Source of the DNA: a virus
Reading direction: 5' to 3' (one strand)
Length of the DNA: 64,000 nucleotides
IMG/VR virus record: IMGVR_UViG_3300037423_000411
Span: 32,001 to 96,000 of that record
Shown: one piece after another, positions 1 to 51,899 of the stretch
How positions within the stretch are numbered: position 1 is the first letter of the stretch
Layout of the letters: every line of letters starts with the position of its first letter
Made by a program: the position numbers and the translations under genes
The notes under the pieces: generated by a model
Told to the model about the DNA's origin: nothing
The model's input: the letters and a program-made list of their open reading frames with translations, nothing else
The model's database searches: none

Positions 1-92
1 GGGTCATCTTGGGTCTCGACGCAAGTTGGCTTCAGGGAAAAGTTGTGACCTCCTGAGCGGCTTCCTTCTGTGTGAAGCACAACCCGGCTGGC

Positions 93-4248: not shown

Positions 4249-4479
4249 TTCCGCCTCCGATGGGGTGAGAGTCCCGCTTACAGGTCCATAGTGCCGTATC
4301 AAGGTTACAGGTGTCAACCGATACACGCGCGAAGCCTCCGAGCGGAGGGTTATGGGTTCGTACCCTGCGGAGTGGCTCGGAGGCTTCTTCTGGCGGTTCC
4401 GCGTCCTTATCAAGACGGACGTAATCGGCACAACGTCCGGTCGCGGATCTCTTACCTAGCTGTCTGACCCAGGATCTGA

Positions 4480-5172: not shown

Positions 5173-5200
5173 GGCTTGAGGATCGTCCTCCTATGACGAA

Positions 5201-5258
5201 TCCCGCTCCGAGCTTCGCGACATTGGGGATGACGCTTGTTGGATGGCTCGGAGCGGGA
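5201..5258 (-). ncRNA. solo TIGR-like unit
   Basis: 13-bp stem tcccgctccgagc/gctcggagcggga enclosing CCA-tccaacaag-CG-tcatcc-CCA-atgtcgcgaa. Confidence 0.7.
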
Positions 5259-5268
5259 CGATCTGGAT

Positions 5269-7101: not shown

Positions 7102-7282
7102 CTTACCGCACGCGAGGTGATCCTGTGTAGAGGCGTCTCGTGTGGCGTGCGGTAAGTGCTCTGACCTGCAGGTTTGTCTCTCTCGCGTGGTGCATTGGTG
7201 TGTACGGAGGAGGTATGGCGAGAGGACGGATCTGAACTCACGCGGTGTGCATTGGGGTGTCTTGATCACGGATGGCGTGAGT
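7102..7282 (-). ncRNA. TIGR-like stem-loop guide array, 3 units
   Basis: Units 7102-7156, 7180-7224 and 7236-7282, each with its own stem and two CCA/ACA-anchored segments of about 9 nt. Confidence 0.72.
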
Positions 7283-10539: not shown

Positions 10540-11502
10540 CTACTTGATCGTCTGTTGACACAACGGACATGTTCCTGCCTCCTTCAGTGTCTCGTGTAGT
10601 TCCTGTTCGGCTTCCTGAATGTGGATCTCCAGGTCGTTGATCTCTCGTTCCTTCTCAGCCCTGAAAGCAACCTGTGCGTTGTACCGCTTCGCCCAGGACT
10701 CAACTTCGTTGATCTTGGCCTCGACCTCTTCAAGGTCTTGCATGTCCCCCGCAACCGACTTGAGGAGACTGGTCAGCTCATCGGCCTTGGCCTGAGCACT
10801 GACGATGAGACGCTGTGCGCTCGTGTAACGGCCTGAGAGGTCTTCAAGCTGAGTGATACGTGAGGAGGCGTCAATGGCCGCAGAAAGCAGCTCTCGTGCC
10901 TCCTCGACAGCCTTCTTGCGTGTGCCGAGATCGGCATACTCGGTCTTCACGCGAGTCACTGCCGCATCAGCGTCCTTGCGCCTGATACCTGCGAGCTTCA
11001 GCATCTCCTGTCGGCGCCTGTTGGCCTCTCTGGCGGCCTCGGCAAGCATGCTGACGTTGGTGAGATCGCCCAGCACCTTCGCGGTAGCTGAGCCTGTCTC
11101 TGCCAGCAACCAAGGGCTGTCGAACTGCGTGCTGAAGAACAGGTCAGGATCGCCCTCAGGCGTCTTCAAGACCTTCTGCACATCGGCAGGGACTGTGGTG
11201 CCGCACTTCGCGTACAGCTCACTGTGCCCGTGCTCGTTGACCAGCTTGTAAGAGCTGACACCCTTCCCACGCTCCAGCTCTACCGCTGTGCCGTCGCTGT
11301 ACGTCAGTCTGAGCTTGGCTGAGGTCTTTCCTTTGCTCACGTACCCAGGACTGATGCTGTTACGTGAGACGGCCTTCAGTGCCCTACCGAACGCGCTCTT
11401 GCCTGAGTTGGAGTGCCCAACGACCACAGTCAACTTGCCCAACGGGATCTTCACGTCGTACAAGGACTGGAAGCTCTCTACCGCAAGCTCGCTGATGGTC
11501 AT
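10540..11502 (-). CDS. SbcC/Rad50-like ATPase, N-terminal half
   Basis: SFQS...GHSNSGKS Walker A, Q-loop (FFSTQ), coiled coil and terminal CPLC zinc hook. Confidence 0.85.
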   Translation of the reverse strand: MTISELAVESFQSLYDVKIPLGKLTVVVGHSNSGKSAFGRALKAVSRNSISPGYVSKGKTSAKLRLTYSDGTAVELERGKGVSSYKLVNEHGHSELYAKCGTTVPADVQKVLKTPEGDPDLFFSTQFDSPWLLAETGSATAKVLGDLTNVSMLAEAAREANRRRQEMLKLAGIRRKDADAAVTRVKTEYADLGTRKKAVEEARELLSAAIDASSRITQLEDLSGRYTSAQRLIVSAQAKADELTSLLKSVAGDMQDLEEVEAKINEVESWAKRYNAQVAFRAEKEREINDLEIHIQEAEQELHETLKEAGTCPLCQQTIK

Positions 11503-11731: not shown

Positions 11732-11793
11732 GTGTGAGGTCAGCTTCGGGACTTTATGGGTTTCGTTCCCTTGTCTGGAAGCTGACCTCACAC
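11732..11793 (-). ncRNA. solo TIGR-like unit
   Basis: Perfect 16-bp stem gtgtgaggtcagcttc enclosing CCA-gacaagggaa-CGAAACCCA-taaagtccc. Confidence 0.78.
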
Positions 11794-13064
11794 GGTGTTA
11801 CGGCACCCTACGACGAACCCACGGACTCGGCCAGACGACACCGAGCAGGTAGGACAGAGCCAGGAAGAACAACCCAGCACCGAGCAGGTTGAAGTGCGTC
11901 GAGACGTCCACTCCAAACGTGTAGAGGAAGAAACACACAGCCGCGAGGACTGCGGAAACCACGCCTGCCATGATTACCGCTTGGTCGGGGCAAACGACGG
12001 GAAGCTCTCGCCGCCTACCTCAGGGTTGGCGTCACGGAAGACGTAGCCGAGACCGTCCTCACCGCGTGCATCGATCAGCGCCTGCGCGTCTTCCTGAGCC
12101 TGCTTGGCCGCAGCTTCCGCGCCGTTGTCGGGGGTAGCCGTGGTGCCGTCCTGCACAGCAGCCTGCTCGGCCTGAGCTTCGGTCACGACTCCCTGATCGG
12201 TGGTCTCGGCCGTGCGAGTACCGGTCTGGTCAGCTTCGACCGTAGGTACGTCAGGTGCAGCAGGCGCCGAGTACGCCGGTTCCGCGTTGTCACGTGCCAT
12301 CTCAAAATCTCCTTGGTCTTCGACCATGACGGTGCGCCATGCTCTCACTGGATCGGCCCCTACTTGCTATGTATGGATCGCCCGTTTTCCTGTTCCCACG
12401 CCTTAAAACGACGCTTGTCGTGTAGAAAATTCTCCACGAACCGGGTACCGAGGCAACACCATTGACCAGCTTTCGCCCGGCAGGAAGGGCAGTCGACCTT
12501 CAAGGCAGGCTGATGCTCCAGTGTCCTCATCTTCACGAGCGCCTGCTCTGCCCACCGTGGCGGATCGATCAGAAAGGCCTTCCGCTTGCTCGACCACTCG
12601 ATGTTCAAGACAGTCTGCCGCTTCGCTGCCATCTCGCTGAGATCTGCAACCTCACGAGGCTTCAGCTCGATAGGATCGCCCTTCTTCACTTCTGCACCGT
12701 GTTCCGTATCGCCGCCACTCGTGCACTCCGTGTCTTCGTCTTACCGTTGTCACGCGGCATGTCCCGGTACTTCTCAGCCCAAGCCTCGAACCGTGTGCGC
12801 TCACCTTCGTGTTCCTCGATCGCCTGAACCAGGTGCAGAGGACAGTAGTTGCCGGACATCGCATCGATGATGAGCATGGAACGCGTACTGGCGGCCTTGA
12901 GTGCGAACTTCGCACGCTTCCCGCACCGGTAGGCATCCGCCTTCCTCGGGTCGCCTCGATCGGCCTTCTTCACCCAGCCTTTCTGAGCACAGCACTGCAC
13001 ATCACCCGTGACCTCTTTGACCCAAGGACTGGCGAGAATCATCTCCCGCCAGTCCTTGTACTCG

Positions 13065-13847
13065 TCACTTGACTGTCTGACCATCCGGCTCGTCCTTCAC
13101 TCCGTGCAAGCGCCGGGATTCCTTCCACAGGCCCTTGAGCATTTCCTTGGACATCACCCGCAACGCGTCCGCGTGCCGGTGCCCATCGTTCCACGGTGAG
13201 CCTGGCTGTGCGGGCTTGCCTGACGGCCCGCAACGCACGCAGGGGTTCACATGCAACTTGCCCTCGGTGTGTGCCTTGCGCTTGTCGTACACCTCACGAT
13301 TGCCGGAACGAAGCATGCTCTCGGCAATCAGATAGGCCCGCGTCTTCGCGGTGGTCGACCAGTTGGCCTTCACACCCTTCTTGCGTCGCATCGCGTTGCC
13401 TTCGGCGTCCACGTGCAAACCGCAGTAGGCCCACAGCTGCGAGACCGTGCGCGGCTGACCGGTGTTGCCGTTGATGTACGGGTCACCGATGACACCGAGC
13501 AGACGCGCGGCCTGCTTGTCGCCCAGGCCTTTGATGCTCTTCACGTACGGGCCGAGCTTGTCGTTCTTCATGCGCTTGGTGAGCTGCTTGATCGCGGAGT
13601 CTTCCAGCTCCTTGAGCCCGTCGACCATCTGCGTCATGTTGCGCACGTCAGGGTGATCTGCGGTCAATCCGAACCCACGCTCTTCACCGTCCGAGTCGAC
13701 GGCGGTACGCGTGAGCTGCCGCAACCGGTTCTCGTTGGCGAGCCGCAGCCCCTCGATGTCATCCAGGATGATGGACGACAGTGCCAGGAAGGGATCTGCG
13801 AACGTCGCGAATGCTACTTCCTGTGCTGCATCGACAGTGTCTGTCAT
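13065..13847 (-). CDS. Nop/IS110-related RNA-binding protein lacking a nuclease domain (TasA-like)
   Basis: Coiled coil (RLANENRL), SIKGLGDKQAARLLGVIGD, TVSQLWAYCGL, RRKKG...NW and HADALRVMSKEML motifs; no N-terminal DEDD RuvC; GGAGG SD before ATG 13847; adjacent guide array. Confidence 0.85.
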   Translation of the reverse strand: MTDTVDAAQEVAFATFADPFLALSSIILDDIEGLRLANENRLRQLTRTAVDSDGEERGFGLTADHPDVRNMTQMVDGLKELEDSAIKQLTKRMKNDKLGPYVKSIKGLGDKQAARLLGVIGDPYINGNTGQPRTVSQLWAYCGLHVDAEGNAMRRKKGVKANWSTTAKTRAYLIAESMLRSGNREVYDKRKAHTEGKLHVNPCVRCGPSGKPAQPGSPWNDGHRHADALRVMSKEMLKGLWKESRRLHGVKDEPDGQTVK

Positions 13848-13872
13848 TTGGGTGTGCCTCCTTCTTTGGTTG

Positions 13873-14089
13873 CCCTGAGCGCGGCGAAACCTGGGTATCA
13901 ATATCCTTTGGCTCAGGGAAGATTGTTGCCCAAGGCGATGAACTTTGAGTGCTGTGGGGAATTTGGCCTCGGGAGTTCTGGACTCAGCAGCGTGCACTCG
14001 ATGGGTGAGAGCAGATGTGTTGGCCGCTGAGAAGTTTGAGCGGGGCAGCTGACGAATACTCTTGGGCGATCCTCGGTTCCTGGTCAGCT
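13873..14089 (-). ncRNA. TIGR-like stem-loop guide array, 4 units, directly upstream of the TasA-like gene
   Basis: Units 13873-13918, 13929-13973, 13983-14031 and 14047-14089; period about 55-64 nt; e.g. ccctgagCCA-aaggatat-TGATACCCA-ggtttcgccgc-gctcaggg. Confidence 0.85.
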
Positions 14090-14094
14090 CAGAA

Positions 14095-14649
14095 TCAGGC
14101 AGCCGTTCCGAGCACCTTCAGGTGCACCTCGATCGGCAACTCTCCGAAGGTCTTCACGTCGTACTCGGTGAGCAGAGCCGCGTAGCCGTGGAACCGAGCC
14201 GCCCACGCCTTGTTGGCCTCGGCAAGCTTCTCGCGCTGCTTCGCCGCGTGCATGAGATCGTCGTACGTGCAGTCCTTGAGGAACTTGTAGTCACCCTGAC
14301 CGATGCTGATGCGATCACGCAGATGCTGCTGCCAGCCGTCACGAATCGCAGCGACCTTGGTGCTCGTGGTCGTGGACTTGATCCCACCAGCGTGCTTGCT
14401 GTTCACGATCTTCGGGAAAGCCGACGCCGGGGGCATGTTGGAACGCGTCCGCGTCGTGCCCAGGTAGTGCCGGACGTAGTCGATCAGCAGCACTTCGAGC
14501 ACCTCGTGATAACGCGCCTTCGGGATACGTTTCAGTATCTCCTGCATGATCTCGTGAACATCGGTGAGATCGGTGTTGTTCAGGATGTCCGTCAGGATTC
14601 CCCTGAGCGTGAGCGTCGACATCAGTTCCTCCTGCAGTTGTGCCACCAT
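14095..14649 (-). CDS. hypothetical protein embedded in the TIGR-Tas-like locus
   Basis: GGAGG SD; flanked on both sides by guide units. Confidence 0.8.
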   Translation of the reverse strand: MVAQLQEELMSTLTLRGILTDILNNTDLTDVHEIMQEILKRIPKARYHEVLEVLLIDYVRHYLGTTRTRSNMPPASAFPKIVNSKHAGGIKSTTTSTKVAAIRDGWQQHLRDRISIGQGDYKFLKDCTYDDLMHAAKQREKLAEANKAWAARFHGYAALLTEYDVKTFGELPIEVHLKVLGTAA

Positions 14650-14675
14650 TTCGTTTACCTCCTACAACGTTTTAA

Positions 14676-14728
14676 TTCCCGACAACAAAGGTCGTATGGG
14701 TAACCGAGAGGAGCTTGGTCGCCGGGAA
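14676..14728 (-). ncRNA. solo TIGR-like unit
   Basis: ttcccggcgaCCA-agctcctct-CGGTTACCCA-tacgaccttt-gttgtcgggaa. Confidence 0.78.
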
Positions 14729-15258
14729 ACCCCTGGTCATGCTTCCTGAGTGTTCGTCCAGCCTGCGTAAGTCACTTCAGCCTCGTAACCACAGTTGACG
14801 CACGTGTGTGTGGTCTCCGGTGCCTCAGTAAGGTCTTCGGCCTCGTACACACCCTCAGGAGCGACGAACTCGACCTCTTGTGTGGTCTTGCACATGGCAC
14901 AGTCCACGAGCTGTGAGAGCCGCAGAGGCTCCTGGTCTCGGTCTTCAGGGTCTTCGTCCACACGTGCCATGAGATCTAACGTTCCTCGCCGGTAGTAGTC
15001 ACTGAATTCTGGCGTCTTCATCAGGCTCGCCTGCCGGGTTGTAGAGCACCCAACCAACCTGCATCGCCGCAGAGATCATGCGATCTACGATCTCTTCACA
15101 CATGTCCATCCGCTCACCCACGAACTCGTTGCTGTCGCCGTACTGGTCCTCAAAGAGAGACTCGGCCATCGCCTTGCGTGCAGGATGATGGCGTACGGCA
15201 CACAGCTGGCAGCCTTCCGGGCTGCCGTACTCCTCAGGGTCGTGCAAGCAGTCGACGT

Positions 15259-16155
15259 TCACTTGGTGGTCTTCTTCTCGTCGTCCACAACAACCACTTT
15301 GGTCACGATGCCGTCCTTGACCAACATCTTCTCCTTCGCGGGAGACCAGTCAGGCTCCTTCTTCTGGCGTTCCTTGACCGCGAACGTCGACCACGCCCGA
15401 ACATGTCCCTTGTAGGTACACGGCCAGACCGTGCCGTCTTCCAGCACGAAGACACGATCGCCCTCTGCACCCGCAGGAGACGCCGACTTGATCGGAGCGG
15501 ACAGACCTGCAGGCCAGTCCCCTGTGATCAGCTGCTGAGCCGTGTAGTAGCTGTTGGACGACAGTGACGTCTGTCCAGGCTCGGTCTCGGACTGGTAGTA
15601 GGTGCTTCCGCTCCAGGAAGAGCCGACAGGCTTGGTCGCGAGCTGTGTGCTCTGCTCTTCGAGTGGCTGCAGGTAGCCCAGCGCCATCAACAGACAAGCC
15701 AGCGACGGCCGGTACTTCTTTTCCAGCCGCTTCCGCGTGTACTCAGGCAGGTCAGCCAGACGGTCTGGACGGAGATTGTGCAACAGATCGGCGGCCTTGA
15801 CGCGCATAGCGCCCTCGCCTGCCGCGATGACGCGCTTGAGGTACTTGGTCTGCTCCTCCTGAGGGTTCTTGGTGACGGCCCACACGATACGTACCACCGA
15901 AGCAGGGAAACCTTCGTCCAGCAGCGTCTTGAAGGTCACCTTCGGGACGTCTTCGACCACATCGTGCAGGAACGCTGCCGCGATCTCTTCGATCGAGCCT
16001 CCCAGCAGTCGTACGCCCTGCGAGACTGACACCAGATGATTGAGATACGGCTGCTTGAGCTTGTCCGTCTGACCCTTGTGATGCTCGGCGGCGAACTCAC
16101 GAGCATGCGCGACCAGCGTCAAGCGCCCGATATCAAGAGTCGCTTCAGAGGTCAT
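15259..16155 (-). CDS. HD-domain hydrolase (RelA/SpoT hydrolase, Mesh1-like) with C-terminal extension
   Basis: HKGQTDK...PYLNHL, AAFLHDVVED and VKAADLLHNL motifs. Confidence 0.85.
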   Translation of the reverse strand: MTSEATLDIGRLTLVAHAREFAAEHHKGQTDKLKQPYLNHLVSVSQGVRLLGGSIEEIAAAFLHDVVEDVPKVTFKTLLDEGFPASVVRIVWAVTKNPQEEQTKYLKRVIAAGEGAMRVKAADLLHNLRPDRLADLPEYTRKRLEKKYRPSLACLLMALGYLQPLEEQSTQLATKPVGSSWSGSTYYQSETEPGQTSLSSNSYYTAQQLITGDWPAGLSAPIKSASPAGAEGDRVFVLEDGTVWPCTYKGHVRAWSTFAVKERQKKEPDWSPAKEKMLVKDGIVTKVVVVDDEKKTTK

Positions 16156-24997: not shown

Positions 24998-25092
24998 TCC
25001 CTTCGTCTGGTGAGAGGCGCGAAGAACCAGGGCTTACGCCGCCGTTGAATGGCCTCTCATCACACGTACGGACTTCGGAGACAAGATCTGCA

Positions 25093-25136
25093 CAGAGGCG
25101 AATGCCTTAGGGGTGACGCTCCTTGTATGGCCTCTG
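25093..25136 (-). ncRNA. solo TIGR-like unit (a degenerate second unit lies at 25011-25059)
   Basis: cagaggCCA-tacaaggag-CGTCACCCC-taaggcattc-gcctctg. Confidence 0.62.
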
Positions 25137-25191
25137 AACAGCACAACACCCCCGCAGCGTCCATTACGGGGGTGTTGAGTCTTGTTGAGGA

Positions 25192-36641: not shown

Positions 36642-36710
36642 TTCTGCCTCCAGTGTGAGAGAGTCGGTGTTCGCTCCGACAAGAAGAACGGTATCGGAGG
36701 GGGTGACAAC

Positions 36711-36768
36711 TGTCAACCCCTGAGCGGGTGACACTGGGTGCCGAATTGCAATGGCTCAGGGGCTGACA
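36711..36768 (-). ncRNA. solo TIGR-like unit overlapping a -35 box
   Basis: tgtcagcccctgagCCA-ttgcaatt-CGGCACCCA-gtgtcaccc-gctcaggggttgaca. Confidence 0.75.
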
Positions 36769-36924
36769 GCAGAAACCCGCTTCGAAGTCCTCGACAGCAC
36801 GGGGTCTGTGCCGGGTGACATCTCTGCGGGTTCCTGGTGCCTGAGGCGCGTGCCCTACGCGTATGAGGAGACGCATCTAAGCGAACTCTTCGGGACAACT
36901 CTCCTCAGGAAACTGTGAACGAGG

Positions 36925-42132: not shown

Positions 42133-42193
42133 ACGAGTTTAGCTGAACGTAACCTCACTGGGTTTCGAAGGTGCGTGGGTTCAGCCGACTCGT
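42133..42193 (-). ncRNA. solo TIGR-like unit
   Basis: gagtcggctgaacCCA-cgcacctt-CGAAACCCA-gtgaggttac-gttcagctaaactc. Confidence 0.75.
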
Positions 42194-44609: not shown

Positions 44610-45338
44610 TCATAAGCCGACCGCCCGAAGCTCTTGCCGTACCCCTTTCAGCACCTCGATGCCGACACGGGACGACCAACCGCACATCCTTGCCAACGAA
44701 GCGCCTGTGACCGCCTCTCCTGCCTCTGCAAGCCGCATGACAGCCTGCATACCTTCATGATGCCGCTGAGCGTCCCTAGCGGCAGCCTGAGCCTGCCTCC
44801 GCTGCTTCCAGACGGTCTCCGTCGCTGAAGCCTCCGCAACCTCAGCGGTGTGCCGTGCCCGAACTTCGGCCGTCGTCATCACCGACACCAGTACAAGCCG
44901 GGACTCGATCGCCTTCTCCATCTCGGCCGGTTGCCAGCGGTCCTGGTGAGCTTCTCCCCAGGTCATCCCCGAGTCCTCTTCACCACCGACCACCGCGTCC
45001 AGCTTCGCGAACTCAGGCTCACGTTTGGCGAGGTTGCGCTGCTTGTCGAGATACTGCAGGCAGTACCGCTGAGTGAAAGACCGGAGCAGGTTGCTGAATC
45101 TGGCAGCACGCCAGCGGCCTCCCTCGGTGCGCGGATTCTCGCCCGCGTCGAAGACACGATCGGCATCGAACCAGGTCAGCGCGTCCTTCTCCATGAACTT
45201 CAGCAGGATCTCGTGAGCCACGTCCTCGACGTCCTCGCGCACGATGCCCATCTTCGCCACGATGGACTTCATCATCCCGAAGTAATGCGTGTACAAGTCG
45301 GCGTAATCCCTCGGCGCACCTGTACGGGAAATGATCAT
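44610..45338 (-). CDS. ECF-like sigma-70 factor
   Basis: LYTHY...EDVEDVAHEILLKF...FSNLLRSF region-2 pattern; C-terminal HTH (ASLARMCGWS); CTCTCAC leader. Confidence 0.65.
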   Translation of the reverse strand: MIISRTGAPRDYADLYTHYFGMMKSIVAKMGIVREDVEDVAHEILLKFMEKDALTWFDADRVFDAGENPRTEGGRWRAARFSNLLRSFTQRYCLQYLDKQRNLAKREPEFAKLDAVVGGEEDSGMTWGEAHQDRWQPAEMEKAIESRLVLVSVMTTAEVRARHTAEVAEASATETVWKQRRQAQAAARDAQRHHEGMQAVMRLAEAGEAVTGASLARMCGWSSRVGIEVLKGVRQELRAVGL

Positions 45339-46098
45339 CGACCGCCTCCTGGTGAGAGTTCCTGACACTGCGAACGAGGACTTAGACGCCTCCGTGAACA
45401 CCTCGCAGTGTCAGGCGTAAACTGTTGCTTGCGGCATCATTGCACCAAACGATTGAAACGCCAAGCTCCGACTCGTTTTCCCAAGTCCGTAAAGGATTCA
45501 GGATCTGCTTGGTCTCGTTTCATACCCCACGTCAGTCCGTCATCAGGAGTCGTCACCGGCCTCGACGTCGACCGGTGTGTGGTCGGTTCCGACCACCTCT
45601 CGGCCTCCATCGACAGCTTGCGATCGTTGATCTCTCGATGTGCCTCGGCGCGCTCCGAGCGCGCCTGCACACGGACCATCTTGTCCTGCAGCTTCCCGTC
45701 CTCGCGCAGCCAGCGCTGGTACTCCTCGCGCGGACTCAGAGCACGATCGGGATCTGCCTTGTAGAGCGCCTTGTATTCAGGACATTCGAGGACGTGTGCG
45801 TTGATCTTCTTGCACGAGACGTCCGTTTCCCCGCAGCCTGCACAGCGTCCTTGCGGCATCAGCCGTAGTACGCCTTCAGGTGCTTACCGAGCTGGTACAA
45901 CCCCACCCCCGCGATGAGAGCTGCCAGAACGATCCCCAGTCTCTTCACTTTTTGCCTTTCTTGACGATGCTGTTGACCTCGGCCCGCTCAGCAGCTCGCC
46001 TCACCACGCCGTCCAGTCTCGATCTGACTGTCGTGCTGTCCTTCTTCTTCGGCGTGACGAACTTGCTGAGCGGGTTCTTCGGCTTCTTGTGTTCAGGT

Positions 46099-47046
46099 TC
46101 AGGCCGTGACAGCGTCCGCCTCCGGAGCCGTCGCGTTCGGCACCCTCAGCTCCTCGATCAGGCTCTTCACCGCGTCCAGCTGAGTCTTGAGAGCTTCGTC
46201 GCTGATGTCATCGGCCGCGATGATCTTGTCCCGCGTCGTGTCGATGTACTTGACCAGCGCGTCGGCCGTGTTCGCCAGCATCTGGTCGTTGTGGTTCTGG
46301 ATCTGGATGCAGCAGGCCTTCGTGTAGTTGAGGATGTCCTCACGTGCCGCCATGTCGATTTCCTCCGGTTGCGTCGTAGGTGGCTTGCTCGGTGGCTTCG
46401 GCGTCGTGATCACCGAGCTGTACTTCTGGATCTCGGTCACACCCTTGGCCTGCGTGTAGTGCAGCCGATCGACCTTGCGCCCCGGCGCCCAGGTCAGGTG
46501 CTCCAGGTGCGCGCCTCGCGGCAGGCCAAAGTAGTCCTGCACGGCAGCCCCGACACGTCCCATGAACTCCCTGAACGTCATCTGCTTGCCGGTGCGCGGG
46601 TTCTTCAGGACCCGGTCCCAGTCGGACTCGACGTCCCCGCCCTCGAACTCGGTGCCCCAGGCGTACTTACGGGCCGAGTCCTGCGGAATGCGGTACGACC
46701 CACCTCCGGTCTTCGGCACCGAGATCGGCCCGCCCTCACCGGGGTGGTTCGCCAGCCCGAACGTGATGATCCGGTAGCACAGGTCCCAGCCGCCGTAACC
46801 GTTGCACAGCGGGCCAGGCAGGTCACTACGGCCCTTCTTGCACAAGCTCAGCACCGGCGTCAGGCTGCTCGGGCTGTACCTGCTGTCGACGTGATGATCG
46901 AAGTTCGTCACGACCTGCAGACTGTCCCAGCGGTCACCGGAGACCGGGCGGCCTTCCAGCAGTTCGATCGAGACTTCAGGCACCCCGTGCTGCTGCAGAA
47001 CCGTCTTGAAGGCCTGTGCCTTCTGCAGTGCGGTTGCTTGACTCAC
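46099..47046 (-). CDS. endolysin, N-acetylmuramoyl-L-alanine amidase
   Basis: DHH, GRSDLPGPLC, ANHPGEG, GTEFE and HLTWAPGRKVD, followed by a Pro/Thr linker. Confidence 0.88.
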   Translation of the reverse strand: MSQATALQKAQAFKTVLQQHGVPEVSIELLEGRPVSGDRWDSLQVVTNFDHHVDSRYSPSSLTPVLSLCKKGRSDLPGPLCNGYGGWDLCYRIITFGLANHPGEGGPISVPKTGGGSYRIPQDSARKYAWGTEFEGGDVESDWDRVLKNPRTGKQMTFREFMGRVGAAVQDYFGLPRGAHLEHLTWAPGRKVDRLHYTQAKGVTEIQKYSSVITTPKPPSKPPTTQPEEIDMAAREDILNYTKACCIQIQNHNDQMLANTADALVKYIDTTRDKIIAADDISDEALKTQLDAVKSLIEELRVPNATAPEADAVTA

Positions 47047-48671
47047 TTGGAACCTCCTCGGAACACGAACCGCCCGTACCACGTCAGGTGATGCGTGTGC
47101 GGTGAGCGATCGTCACAGCCACGGCAACGGCGCGTCCACAGCTTCGCCAGCATCAGCTCTCCTTCTCGGACAGACCGTTGTCCGTGTCGTCCTCAGGATC
47201 GATGCTCTCGCCCATCGCCAGACCCTGTTCGCGCTCGTCCTCGGTCAGGGAACTCAGGACGTCGTGAACATCGACCCACTCGCCGCTCTTCGGCGGTTCG
47301 TCGGGTTCGAGTTCGGTCTCGTCGGTCGTGCCGTTCTCGTAGCTGAACCCCTCAGGGAAGAACTCGACCGGCTTGTCTTGCGCGTCACTCGTAACTTCAG
47401 GATCGGTCTCGCTCATCGTGTCCTCTTCTTCGGCTTGTCCTCGACCCAGATGCGCGGGAAGTTCGTCCCGGTGTCGGTCGTCTCCCAGTGTCCCGTCGAC
47501 CGATTCCCGTTCGTATCCTTCGTGTCAGCTGTGCGCTTCTTCCGAGGACTCTGACTGCTCTTCTGAGCCTTGTCGGCCATACCCCAGACCTCCCTGCTCC
47601 TTGAACCAGTTCAGGCGCTCACGCGCCTTGTCAGGGAACTTCGTACAGGTCGACAACACGACCCGCATCCAGAACTCCCTCTCGTTGATCAGGTCGGCCA
47701 GCGAGCAGTAGCCCAGAGGGCTGTTCCTCGCCCAGCCGTCCGAATCGTAGATCACGATCCCGTAGTACTGAGCCCACTCCTGACCCGACGTCAGGAACTC
47801 GTCCACCGTCACTCGCCTGCGCCTTCTGCTGTGCGCTGACCGTTTACCGTGTCGTCCTCGGTGACCGTCACGTACGACCAGCACTGCGTGTTGTGCATCG
47901 CGATGCAGTTGATCTTCGCCGCGTCCTTGAAGATCTGAAGGACTCCATTGTCCAACCGGACCACCTTCAGCCCCGAAGGGTAGGTCGCGAACTCGTGCCC
48001 TTCGTCGTTGTACACCCTTACCGTCATCGTCTTCCTCCTCTCACTTGAGCTGCTACTTGAACAAGGCGGTCAGGAACGTCAGCACGCTGTCGGCCGCGTC
48101 GCCCAGCTTGCTGAAGGCTTCGCCGACAGCTCCTGCGGCATTGGCCGGTTGCGTCAGGACGAACCACGCGAACAGCGCGATCAACGTCCAGGTGATGAGC
48201 TTTCCCCGAAGGGTCATGCCTGTCTCCCAGCTCGTTCGAGCAGTACCGCGTACGTGACTGCCGGAACCTCTTCGGTATCTCCGATGTGCCGAACGCCTGT
48301 GTCGATGAACGACCAGTAGGCCAGTCGGCGCGGTAGGTGGTGTGCCGTCGTCATCAGGACCAGTTCACCAGTACGGCTGAGTCGCTCTCGAAGCGACATG
48401 GCCGGGATGGTCCAGATGGTCTTCAATCTCATCTCTGCCTCCGTCAGGGAAACTCACTCGCGTTCGGATTTAAGGGAAAGTTGTGGTGGTCTACGACGTT
48501 CCGTACGGAGTTTGGGGCCTGCGTGCGACATGTGCCTGAGCGTGAGCTGAGGATTTGTGACAAGACCGTAATACAGGCCTCCGCGGTCTACGTACTGGAT
48601 CGGGAGTTGACTCACGACAACCTTTTGGGCACGCCAAAGGGGGCAGGTTTCCCTGCCCCCTGAGAGACGTA

Positions 48672-49367
48672 CTAAGCGCGCGCTGCGGCGACCGTGACAG
48701 CCGCCGTGATCTCGCCGGAACCGGCCGTGCTCTGGTCGTAGTTGTAGCCGAAGCCGTACAGGTAGACCTCGGTGGTGGAATCGACGGTGATCAACTTGAC
48801 CGTCGAACCGAACAGGTCGTGGCCCTTCGCCGGGCTGATCGCGACGCCACCGACCGTGCCGACGTCAGTGCCCCACTTCGCGTCACCGCTCAGCGTCTGG
48901 TCCTGACCGAAGCGCAGACCTACCTGCGGCATCGAGCCCTGCGCGCCCGTCACGGTACGGTTGAACACCACCGAGGTGTTGACCAGCCACGTGCCCTTCG
49001 GCAGCGTGAAGTGCCCCAGGGTGGTGAACTGGTCGTCCGACGTCGCGGTGGTGTCGCCGAAGTACTTGCCACCCAGGTGCTCGATCGCGCCGCCACCGAC
49101 GTACTTGACCTCCACACCACCCTTGACGTCCGGAGTGTTCGTGTCCTTCAGGAACGCGTCACGATCGGCCGGGACGATCTTGGACTTCGGCAGGCTGTTG
49201 TCCACGACCTGCAGCGCAGCCACCGAACGCGGGCAGAGCGGGTACATCAGGTTCTTGCAGTCGGGCTGGACAGCAGCGTCGGAGATGACGGCGTACCCGA
49301 GCAGACCCACGACAGCCACGATACCGGCAGTGAGAATACGACCGGCCGTGCTCTTGATGAAACGCAA
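48672..49367 (-). CDS. secreted or membrane-anchored hypothetical protein
   Basis: Signal-peptide-like N-terminus and beta-rich C-terminus. Confidence 0.65.
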   Translation of the reverse strand: MRFIKSTAGRILTAGIVAVVGLLGYAVISDAAVQPDCKNLMYPLCPRSVAALQVVDNSLPKSKIVPADRDAFLKDTNTPDVKGGVEVKYVGGGAIEHLGGKYFGDTTATSDDQFTTLGHFTLPKGTWLVNTSVVFNRTVTGAQGSMPQVGLRFGQDQTLSGDAKWGTDVGTVGGVAISPAKGHDLFGSTVKLITVDSTTEVYLYGFGYNYDQSTAGSGEITAAVTVAAARA

Positions 49368-49521: not shown

Positions 49522-49571
49522 CGAGAGAGGCGCGGACTATTTGGTAGCCGTGCTCGATGTGGCCTCTCTCG
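49522..49571 (-). ncRNA. solo TIGR-like unit immediately upstream of the tRNA-like RNA
   Basis: cgagagaggCCA-catcgagca-CGGCTACCA-aatagtccgc-gcctctctcg. Confidence 0.75.
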
Positions 49572-51854: not shown

Positions 51855-51899
51855 CACGGCGCGACTACACTTGGGCATCCTCAACACAATGGCGCCGTG
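51855..51899 (-). ncRNA. solo TIGR-like unit
   Basis: cacggcgCCA-ttgtgttga-GGATGCCCA-agtgtagtc-gcgccgtg. Confidence 0.72.

Follow-up and report, generated by a model that had tools for sequence, protein, structure and literature searches.

A probable stem-loop TIGR-TasA system with a constant neighbouring gene and hairpin units scattered over a soil actinobacteriophage genome

How is a phage locus to be read in which a Nop-domain protein without a recognizable nuclease stands beside short hairpins, each enclosing two spacers, and beside a second small gene? The question is raised by IMG/VR virus record IMGVR_UViG_3300037423_000411, a soil phage genome consisting of one contig of 133,696 bp, of which bases 32001–96000 form the 64,000-nucleotide stretch analysed here (hereafter the window, to which coordinates refer unless the genome is named; 59.7% G+C). 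The order on its minus strand is a single hairpin unit (14676–14728), an open reading frame (ORF) of 184 amino acids (aa; 14095–14649), four further units (13873–14089), and an ORF of 260 aa (13065–13847). The ORFs and a dedicated unit scanner both recover this arrangement, which an earlier note made from the sequence alone had described as a TIGR-Tas-like locus (TIGR, tandem interspaced guide RNA; Tas, TIGR-associated). We conclude that the locus is very probably a stem-loop-type TIGR-TasA system of an actinobacteriophage. Since stem-loop TIGR-TasA systems were published in 2025–2026, the locus itself is no discovery, and most of what follows concerns its partner gene, its spacers, and the distribution of its units.

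Both profile and fold place the 260-aa protein, a nuclease-free TIGR-associated Nop-domain protein (TasA), among the Tas proteins, bearing out the TIGR-Tas-like assignment. A word-based homolog search returned 1407 relatives, and 38 of the listed 120, picked for similar length, were aligned with the query. Against the Protein Data Bank (PDB), the resulting 39-sequence profile matched TaTasR (9mty_A) at E 1.9e-22, with profile positions 61–241 lying on TasR residues 143–296, and TasH entries at E 1.6e-9. The AlphaFold (AF2) model, with a predicted local distance difference test (pLDDT) score of 92.4 and a predicted template-modelling score (pTM) of 0.85, likewise retrieved 9mty first in Foldseek (E 2e-9, template-modelling score (TM) 0.66, 28% identity), followed by TasH entries at about 1e-7 to 1e-6, and the top 10 matches were all TasR or TasH chains (TM 0.63–0.69). 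IS110-family recombinases came next (9t56, 8wt9, and 8wt6, at E about 1e-3), and Nop5 (3nvk, E 0.26) and Prp31 (3siv, E 0.56) were weak matches. The protein also falls into phrog_4285 (E 4.9e-87), which PHROGs labels "transposase". No nuclease family (RuvC or HNH) was found in it by Pfam, its alignment with TasR is limited to TasR residues 143–296, and the N-terminus of its model consists of helices only, in agreement with the proposal that it is nuclease-less. The complete genome holds one tas gene, and the motif AAGAAGGAGG a few bases 5' of its ATG may serve as a ribosome-binding site.

The C-terminal motifs earlier likened to those of IS110 and Nop proteins are present (GLGDKQAARLLG, SQLWAYCG, RRKKGVKANW, and HRHADALR), as is the reported HxxxCxxC...H insert. 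The latter spans residues 199–223 (His199-x3-Cys203-x2-Cys206...His223), a segment that TasR lacks at that alignment point; all four residues are invariant in the 39 aligned homologs, and we read them as a predicted zinc site. GenBank names for homologs vary between hypothetical protein, transposase, and HTH (helix-turn-helix) DNA-binding protein, and one homolog from Nesterenkonia rhizosphaerae (P0043) is named "DUF222 domain-containing protein" in UniRef, while Pfam finds no DUF222 in the window protein. Many homologs carry an in-frame low-complexity insertion right after LWAYCG (alignment A1 columns about 215–272; e.g., L011 5396–5500 and L013 5389–5500). The DNA of this insertion contains one to three guide units, which thereby lie within the tas gene, as described for BlTasA by Xu 2026 (10.64898/2026.09.09.750476); TasA of the window is without it.

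The hairpin units share one grammar. The scanner asked for a fully paired stem, 6 bp or longer, that ends at the C of a CCA on one side and at the G of the last NG on the other, together with an inner NG...YCA pair. The five units at the locus conform to stem-CCA-N8-9-CG-N4-5-CCA-N8-9-CG-stem: four make up a tigRNA-like array between partner gene and tasA (13873–13918, 13929–13973, 13983–14031, and 14047–14089; 21.8–34.6 bits with a covariance model), and the tigRNA-like unit that stands alone upstream of the partner has a 10-bp stem enclosing CCA-N9-CG-GTTAC-CCA-N9-TG (23.5 bits). Stem-loop arrays, as Faure 2025 (PMC12045711) describes them, comprise two 8–12-nucleotide (nt) spacers with a box C (CCA) and a box D (UG), have variable palindromes in place of edge repeats, and pair the box C cytosine with the box D guanine. 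The idea of dual-spacer hairpin units thus matches the stem-loop tigRNA grammar as published in Faure 2025 (sections 8–9) and in the Results of Xu 2026.

Across the whole genome, the scanner placed 34 units with stems of 6 bp or more on the minus strand and none on the plus strand; for stems of 7 bp or more the counts were 30 and 0, against 1–5 and 0–2 units, respectively, in ten Markov shuffles. A doubtful unit (genome position 109,102) was left out of later counts, which gives 33. Genome-wide, a covariance model built from these gave 39 matches at E ≤ 1, every one on the minus strand and one of them a duplicate from overlapping sources; with filters off, it gave 25 minus-strand matches in the window and one on the plus strand, the weakest (E 0.81). 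Seven matches in the window were additional to those of the scanner and kept the grammar, with a loop that is longer or a second box that is degenerate. The five units first noticed are accordingly an under-count, as they belong to a set of about 40 across the genome.

Among the 33 units, the first box C is CCA in all and the second in 31, the other 2 having TCA there. The last box D reads CG in 28, TG in 4, and AG in 1. Spacers are 8 or 9 nt long (spacer A in 30 of 33 units, spacer B in 31 of 33), and the loop measures 4–7 nt. The unit formula given earlier therefore stands for its CCA boxes, spacers, and stems, but not for its inner YG box, which is mostly CG and sometimes GG, TG, AG, or CA; two units combine a CA box D with a TCA second box C, so that the pair is kept as A-U. 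Stems range from 6 to 16 bp and differ between units, with outer pairs changed on both sides in 7 of 8. Because stems were picked for being paired, only their diversity, and not the paired fraction, counts as evidence. A T-run lies 3' of only 1 of the 33 units, which are thus not intrinsic terminators.

Relatives show what is kept in such units and what is not. We fetched 80 IMG/VR loci with the TasA alignment, out of 106 confirmed relatives, and scanned them: 501 units lay on the gene strand as opposed to 28 on the other, and at least one unit was present in 78 of the 80 loci. Twelve loci came from cluster-A-type mycobacteriophages in which tasA is 96.7–100% identical at the DNA level. In the aligned arrays of these phages, stems and boxes are fixed and spacers wholly different; a stem ending CCGTCAG occurs with 9 spacer pairs in 11 loci, and one ending CGGTAGA with 4 in 8. 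Spacers swapped on a fixed scaffold in near-identical phages argue that selection acts on spacer content, and that some process exchanges both spacers of a unit together.

The 184-aa protein, a member of the phrog_4604 family (function unknown), had been put forward as a possible partner, and synteny favours that suggestion. An ORF of the partner family lies just upstream of tasA on the same strand in 77 of the 80 viral loci, one of the three misses being a tasA at a contig end. Among 29 loci from bacterial genomes, whose titles point almost throughout to Actinomycetota, 25 likewise have it upstream of tasA; the four misses comprise one 576-bp contig and three distant Tas proteins at 24–30% identity. 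Adjacency is kept down to about 36–40% TasA identity, in phages infecting Mycobacterium, Gordonia, or Rhodococcus as well as in prophages from many genera of actinobacteria, and the other genes flanking the module in the window had homologs in 0 of these 109 related loci. By tblastn of phage records, the partner was found in 84 (80 Mycobacterium, 3 Gordonia, and 1 Rhodococcus) and a TasA homolog in 91, and a 12-member partner profile reached 1757 representative proteins at E ≤ 1e-3; a locus search starting from the partner alignment returned 1 viral locus and 0 in bacterial genomes. Mycobacterium phage Rajelicia and Rhodococcus phage Peregrin both show the partner, a gap of 334 or 440 nt with units, and then tasA. 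At least 83 sequenced Mycobacterium phage records carry the three-part module. That of Rajelicia (L005, record 44895–48719) shares its strand with the immunity repressor and is found five genes downstream of it; a Cas4-family exonuclease gene follows the module with a 4-base overlap.

The partner itself resembles little. Its model (pLDDT 75) has a disordered middle and one long helix. Pfam gave no usable match for the window protein and 37 family members at E ≤ 0.1, with no ParB, methyltransferase, or L7Ae family among the matches, and nothing usable for six longer upstream ORFs in relatives. No solved relative was found with the partner profile among PDB sequences, Foldseek against the PDB and the ESM Atlas yielded nothing usable, and the best hit of a wide VIA-align search (Z 4.5) was confined to one long helix. 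A complex prediction for TasA and partner (score 0.00, mark 0.32) counts neither way. No mention of the gene was found in the text of Faure 2025, Xu 2026, and Guan 2026 (10.64898/2026.08.11.744272), although their supplementary tables may list it. The only literature found that links tigRNA or TasA to mycobacteriophages or actinophages was Faure 2025, which cites a mycobacteriophage review, and here too supplementary tables may list such loci or scattered units. The constant partner gene is apparently unreported.

Set beside known systems, the locus comes closest to the stem-loop TIGR-TasA systems. As described, PlTasA (from a Peromyscus leucopus gut contig), BlTasA (Bifidobacterium longum), and MbTasA share with it a Nop-domain protein without a nuclease, hairpins whose palindromic stems vary, and occurrence in phages; units upstream and downstream of tas and, in relatives, inside tas at the wedge position are a further common trait. 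Compared by description and not by sequence, it is unlike these three in its mostly CG box D, its invariant His/Cys2/His insert, a 184-aa partner before the array, and guides spread over 76 kb and not around tas. TaTasR (9mty) and SpTasH (9w04, 21kl, and others) have a homologous Nop domain and a CCA box C, but carry RuvC or HNH and use 36-nt guides from dual-repeat arrays, whereas the window system is without a nuclease domain or dual repeats. TasA-TasParB operons likewise place a second gene with tasA and have arrays upstream, between, and downstream of the genes, according to Faure 2025 (Discussion and Methods section 44); the TasParB partner is described as ParB-like and its arrays as dual-repeat, whereas the window partner has no ParB match in Pfam.

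More distant kin share parts of the architecture. IS110/IS621 bridge-RNA recombinases (8wt6, 8wt9, and 9t56) have a related RNA-binding C-terminal domain and a guide RNA with paired loops; unlike them, the window locus is single copy, lacks a DEDD domain and element ends, and has numerous short guides where they have a single bridge RNA. The archaeal and eukaryotic core protein Nop5/Nop56/58 of box C/D small nucleolar ribonucleoproteins (snoRNPs), and Prp31, combine a Nop fold and coiled-coil dimer with a dual-guide RNA bounded by box C/D pairs, a likeness drawn in the Discussion of Faure 2025; TasA matches them only weakly in structure, and published Tas relatives target DNA. The adjacent partner matches neither fibrillarin nor L7Ae in Pfam, and no genome-wide search was made for either.

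The second departure from described systems is the scatter of the units. The record is classed as a virus, has direct terminal repeats and an estimated completeness of 100%, and carries nearly all its long ORFs on the minus strand, according to an ORF map that is crude and over-extends gene starts. Along the non-structural part of this genome, on the gene strand, about 40 candidate units occupy about 18 places from 8 kb to 84 kb of the genome, a span of 76 kb, and only five lie beside tasA. All those in the window are on the minus strand. Two stand at the window edge (1–98), namely genome 31990–32038 (window 1–38, cut by the window start), found by the scanner, and 51–98, found by the covariance model (22.2 bits, degenerate second box C). 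A seven-unit array 11 kb from tasA (1365–1765) was recovered by scanner and covariance model together, with units at 1365–1421, 1423–1472, 1477–1522 (weak), 1534–1581, 1590–1643, 1652–1704 (weak, long loop), and 1714–1765. The same two methods support a group of three at 7106–7282, made up of 7106–7152 (weak, degenerate second box), 7180–7224, and 7236–7282, as well as solo units at 4331–4387 (12-bp stem), 5200–5259 (13-bp stem, final box D AG), 11732–11793 (15-bp stem), 36709–36770 (16-bp stem), 49522–49571 (9-bp stem), and 51855–51899 (7-bp stem). The covariance model adds two units at 25011–25137 (25011–25059, weak, and 25092–25137, the second box C being CCC in both) and a solo candidate at 42141–42186 (19.5 bits, E 0.098). 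The B spacers of the neighbouring units 7180–7224 and 7236–7282 are similar, with their first six bases in common, which hints at duplication of a unit followed by divergence.

Such scatter is uncommon among relatives. We compared 15 other large TasA-carrying viral records, searched whole with the covariance model, and the genome of Rhodococcus phage Peregrin, scanned whole. In 13 of these 16 genomes, units lay no more than a few kilobases from tasA, apart from one stray at most. Two of the 15 records (G002 and G009) gave no covariance-model match; the motifs there may differ, and so the absence of matches is no evidence against guides in them. One genome of the 16 is scattered as well (G004, the record of locus L054; 118,920 bp), with 15 matches from 5.6 to 84 kb. 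Its matches change strand, being on the minus strand at 5.6–42 kb and on the plus strand at 36–84 kb, as if tracking gene orientation.

How might such a system work? Beyond the existence and joint conservation of units and protein, what we propose is inferred, largely by analogy with PlTasA, BlTasA, and MbTasA. Units would be cut from the long same-strand transcripts of the phage into RNAs of about 45–60 nt, and a TasA dimer would hold one such RNA by both box C/D pairs. The spacers may then pair, one on each strand, with a site about 17–18 bp long; PlTasA is described as binding both DNA strands (Guan 2026). Sitting on the site without cutting it, the complex could block transcription or replication of competitor or host genes, and RNA-guided repression of transcription by nuclease-free TasA has been described (Xu 2026). 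One tasA gene would serve about 40 guides in about 18 gaps along the non-structural part of the genome, and guide supply would then track the expression of each operon. Other phages or the host are more likely targets than the phage that carries the system. As for the 184-aa protein, joint action with TasA is most likely, possibly in RNA maturation, in spacer renewal, or as an effector. A bolder proposal, which we offer tentatively and regard as doubtful, is that actinobacteriophages have a two-protein module of TasA and a partner needed for guide maturation or spacer replacement, whose guides have in some large phages left the array for every early and middle operon and so form about 40 expression-timed silencers directed against promoter regions of competing phages or the host.

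Several results weigh against the identification of the locus as a TIGR-TasA system or against its proposed action. Box D is mostly CG, where the systems described first have UG; Xu 2026 discusses the specificity for C versus U there. Of the 33 units, 9 have the CUU processing motif reported in that paper in the interval −6 to +4 around the 5' base of the stem, compared with 8% of random 10-nt windows. Eight of the 33 units have no open minus-strand frame across them (6% at random places), and the other 25 could lie in frames, a test that is weakly informative in 60% GC DNA. The locus stretch was not found in any listed RNA run. Composite targets were sought in the phage's own genome in two geometries, the reverse complement of A then B, and A then the reverse complement of B, gaps allowed. 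With at most 2 mismatches in 16, these gave 12 and 19 sites, judged no excess over the 8–18 and 11–18 in five controls with shuffled partners. For targets elsewhere, DNA of related phages and prophages, at first 1.31 Mb and later 2.56 Mb, was searched with 584 distinct guides from all fetched loci. In the 2.56 Mb, the best cell (A, one free base, reverse complement of B, exact 8+8) gave 5 matches, against a null mean of 1.1 and maximum of 3, and control geometries reached 4; once the number of cells tried is counted, this excess of exact 8+1+8 matches is not significant. One-mismatch counts equalled those of the controls. Two of the five, to guides of other phage contigs (L041 and L022), lie by ORF reading a short way upstream of apparent gene starts, at L109 5179–5195 (also L070 6179–6195) and L019 10415–10431, and are a lead only.

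Could the locus instead be a decayed IS110-family transposase without its DEDD half, the hairpins being functionless remnants or copies of a bridge RNA? Labels lean that way, with PHROGs and several GenBank records speaking of a transposase, a match to Transposase_20 (IS110 C-terminal) in Pfam at E 0.17, below the cut-off, and the IS110 structural kin mentioned above. The TasR match is, however, far better than that to IS110 by profile and by Foldseek, and about 40 units with different spacers are not one two-loop bridge RNA. The gene is full-length and single-copy, with fixed synteny in the 80 viral and 29 bacterial loci, and no DEDD domain was found in the protein, which has no PF01548 match in Pfam and no strand-rich N-terminal domain in its model. 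The same results dispose of an intact DEDD transposase with IS ends, the counter-reading named in the earlier note, and leave the decayed one largely refuted and barely credible. Guided action on RNA, by modification or blocking of host or phage RNAs as in box C/D snoRNPs, would draw on a Nop fold and box C/D-like RNA architecture common to those particles, with the partner standing for fibrillarin or L7Ae. Against it, the partner lacks a methyltransferase or L7Ae family match, Nop5 is a weak structural match (E 0.26), and TasR did not act on RNA substrates in the account of Faure 2025 (section 7); we consider it highly improbable.

A role in cis deserves more thought, namely that TasA-bound hairpins act on phage transcripts alone, as processing sites, stabilisers, or translation controls, and that their loops guide nothing. 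In its favour, none of the units, spread over about 18 places, leaves the transcribed strand, several begin 3–9 nt after the stop of a long ORF, and no target was found for any guide. Yet spacer lengths are held at 8–9 nt and box motifs are kept, and the wholesale replacement of spacers under kept stems in near-identical phages fits selection on spacer content; published TasA proteins, moreover, are described as binding DNA via such spacers (Xu 2026; Guan 2026). We judge an exclusively cis-acting role quite unlikely and prefer guided DNA binding by a TIGR-TasA system. The remaining doubt concerns the 184-aa gene, which could be a neighbour carried along by synteny, with no relation to TasA, as it has no recognisable function. 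Its adjacency across TasA identities down to about 36–40% and many actinobacterial genera, the lack of homologs of the other window flanks in the 109 loci, and the position of guide units on both sides of it make this unlikely in our view.

Some of these observations could help the field. The Discussion of Xu 2026 treats as open what these systems naturally do and target, how guides mature in those of the stem-loop type, and how spacers are renewed, and the partner is a candidate for the factor still missing from maturation or renewal; TasA proteins of this clade reconstituted alone may then miss a part. One tas gene can, on this evidence, serve about 40 scattered guides, most of which array finders looking only around tas would miss. 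As module-bearing Mycobacterium phages grow on a laboratory host, the natural function is directly testable there.

A close DNA-level relative was not found in the phage collection, and the terminase is 41% identical to a Microbacterium phage terminase. The products of nearby genes in the window are an ATPase of the AAA_15 type that has a long coiled region (10540–11502), a Phage_zn_bind_8 zinc-finger DNA-binding protein (12360–12689), and an HD-domain (HD_4) protein (15259–16155), none of which is kept beside tasA in relatives, as judged from the two closest flanks and one further gene. Three more metagenome runs, of soil or rhizosphere and from different studies, contain contig pieces identical to window 13060–14760; no variants were found among the three DNA runs compared, the pieces being identical to the phage stretch, and the same phage thus recurs across samples.

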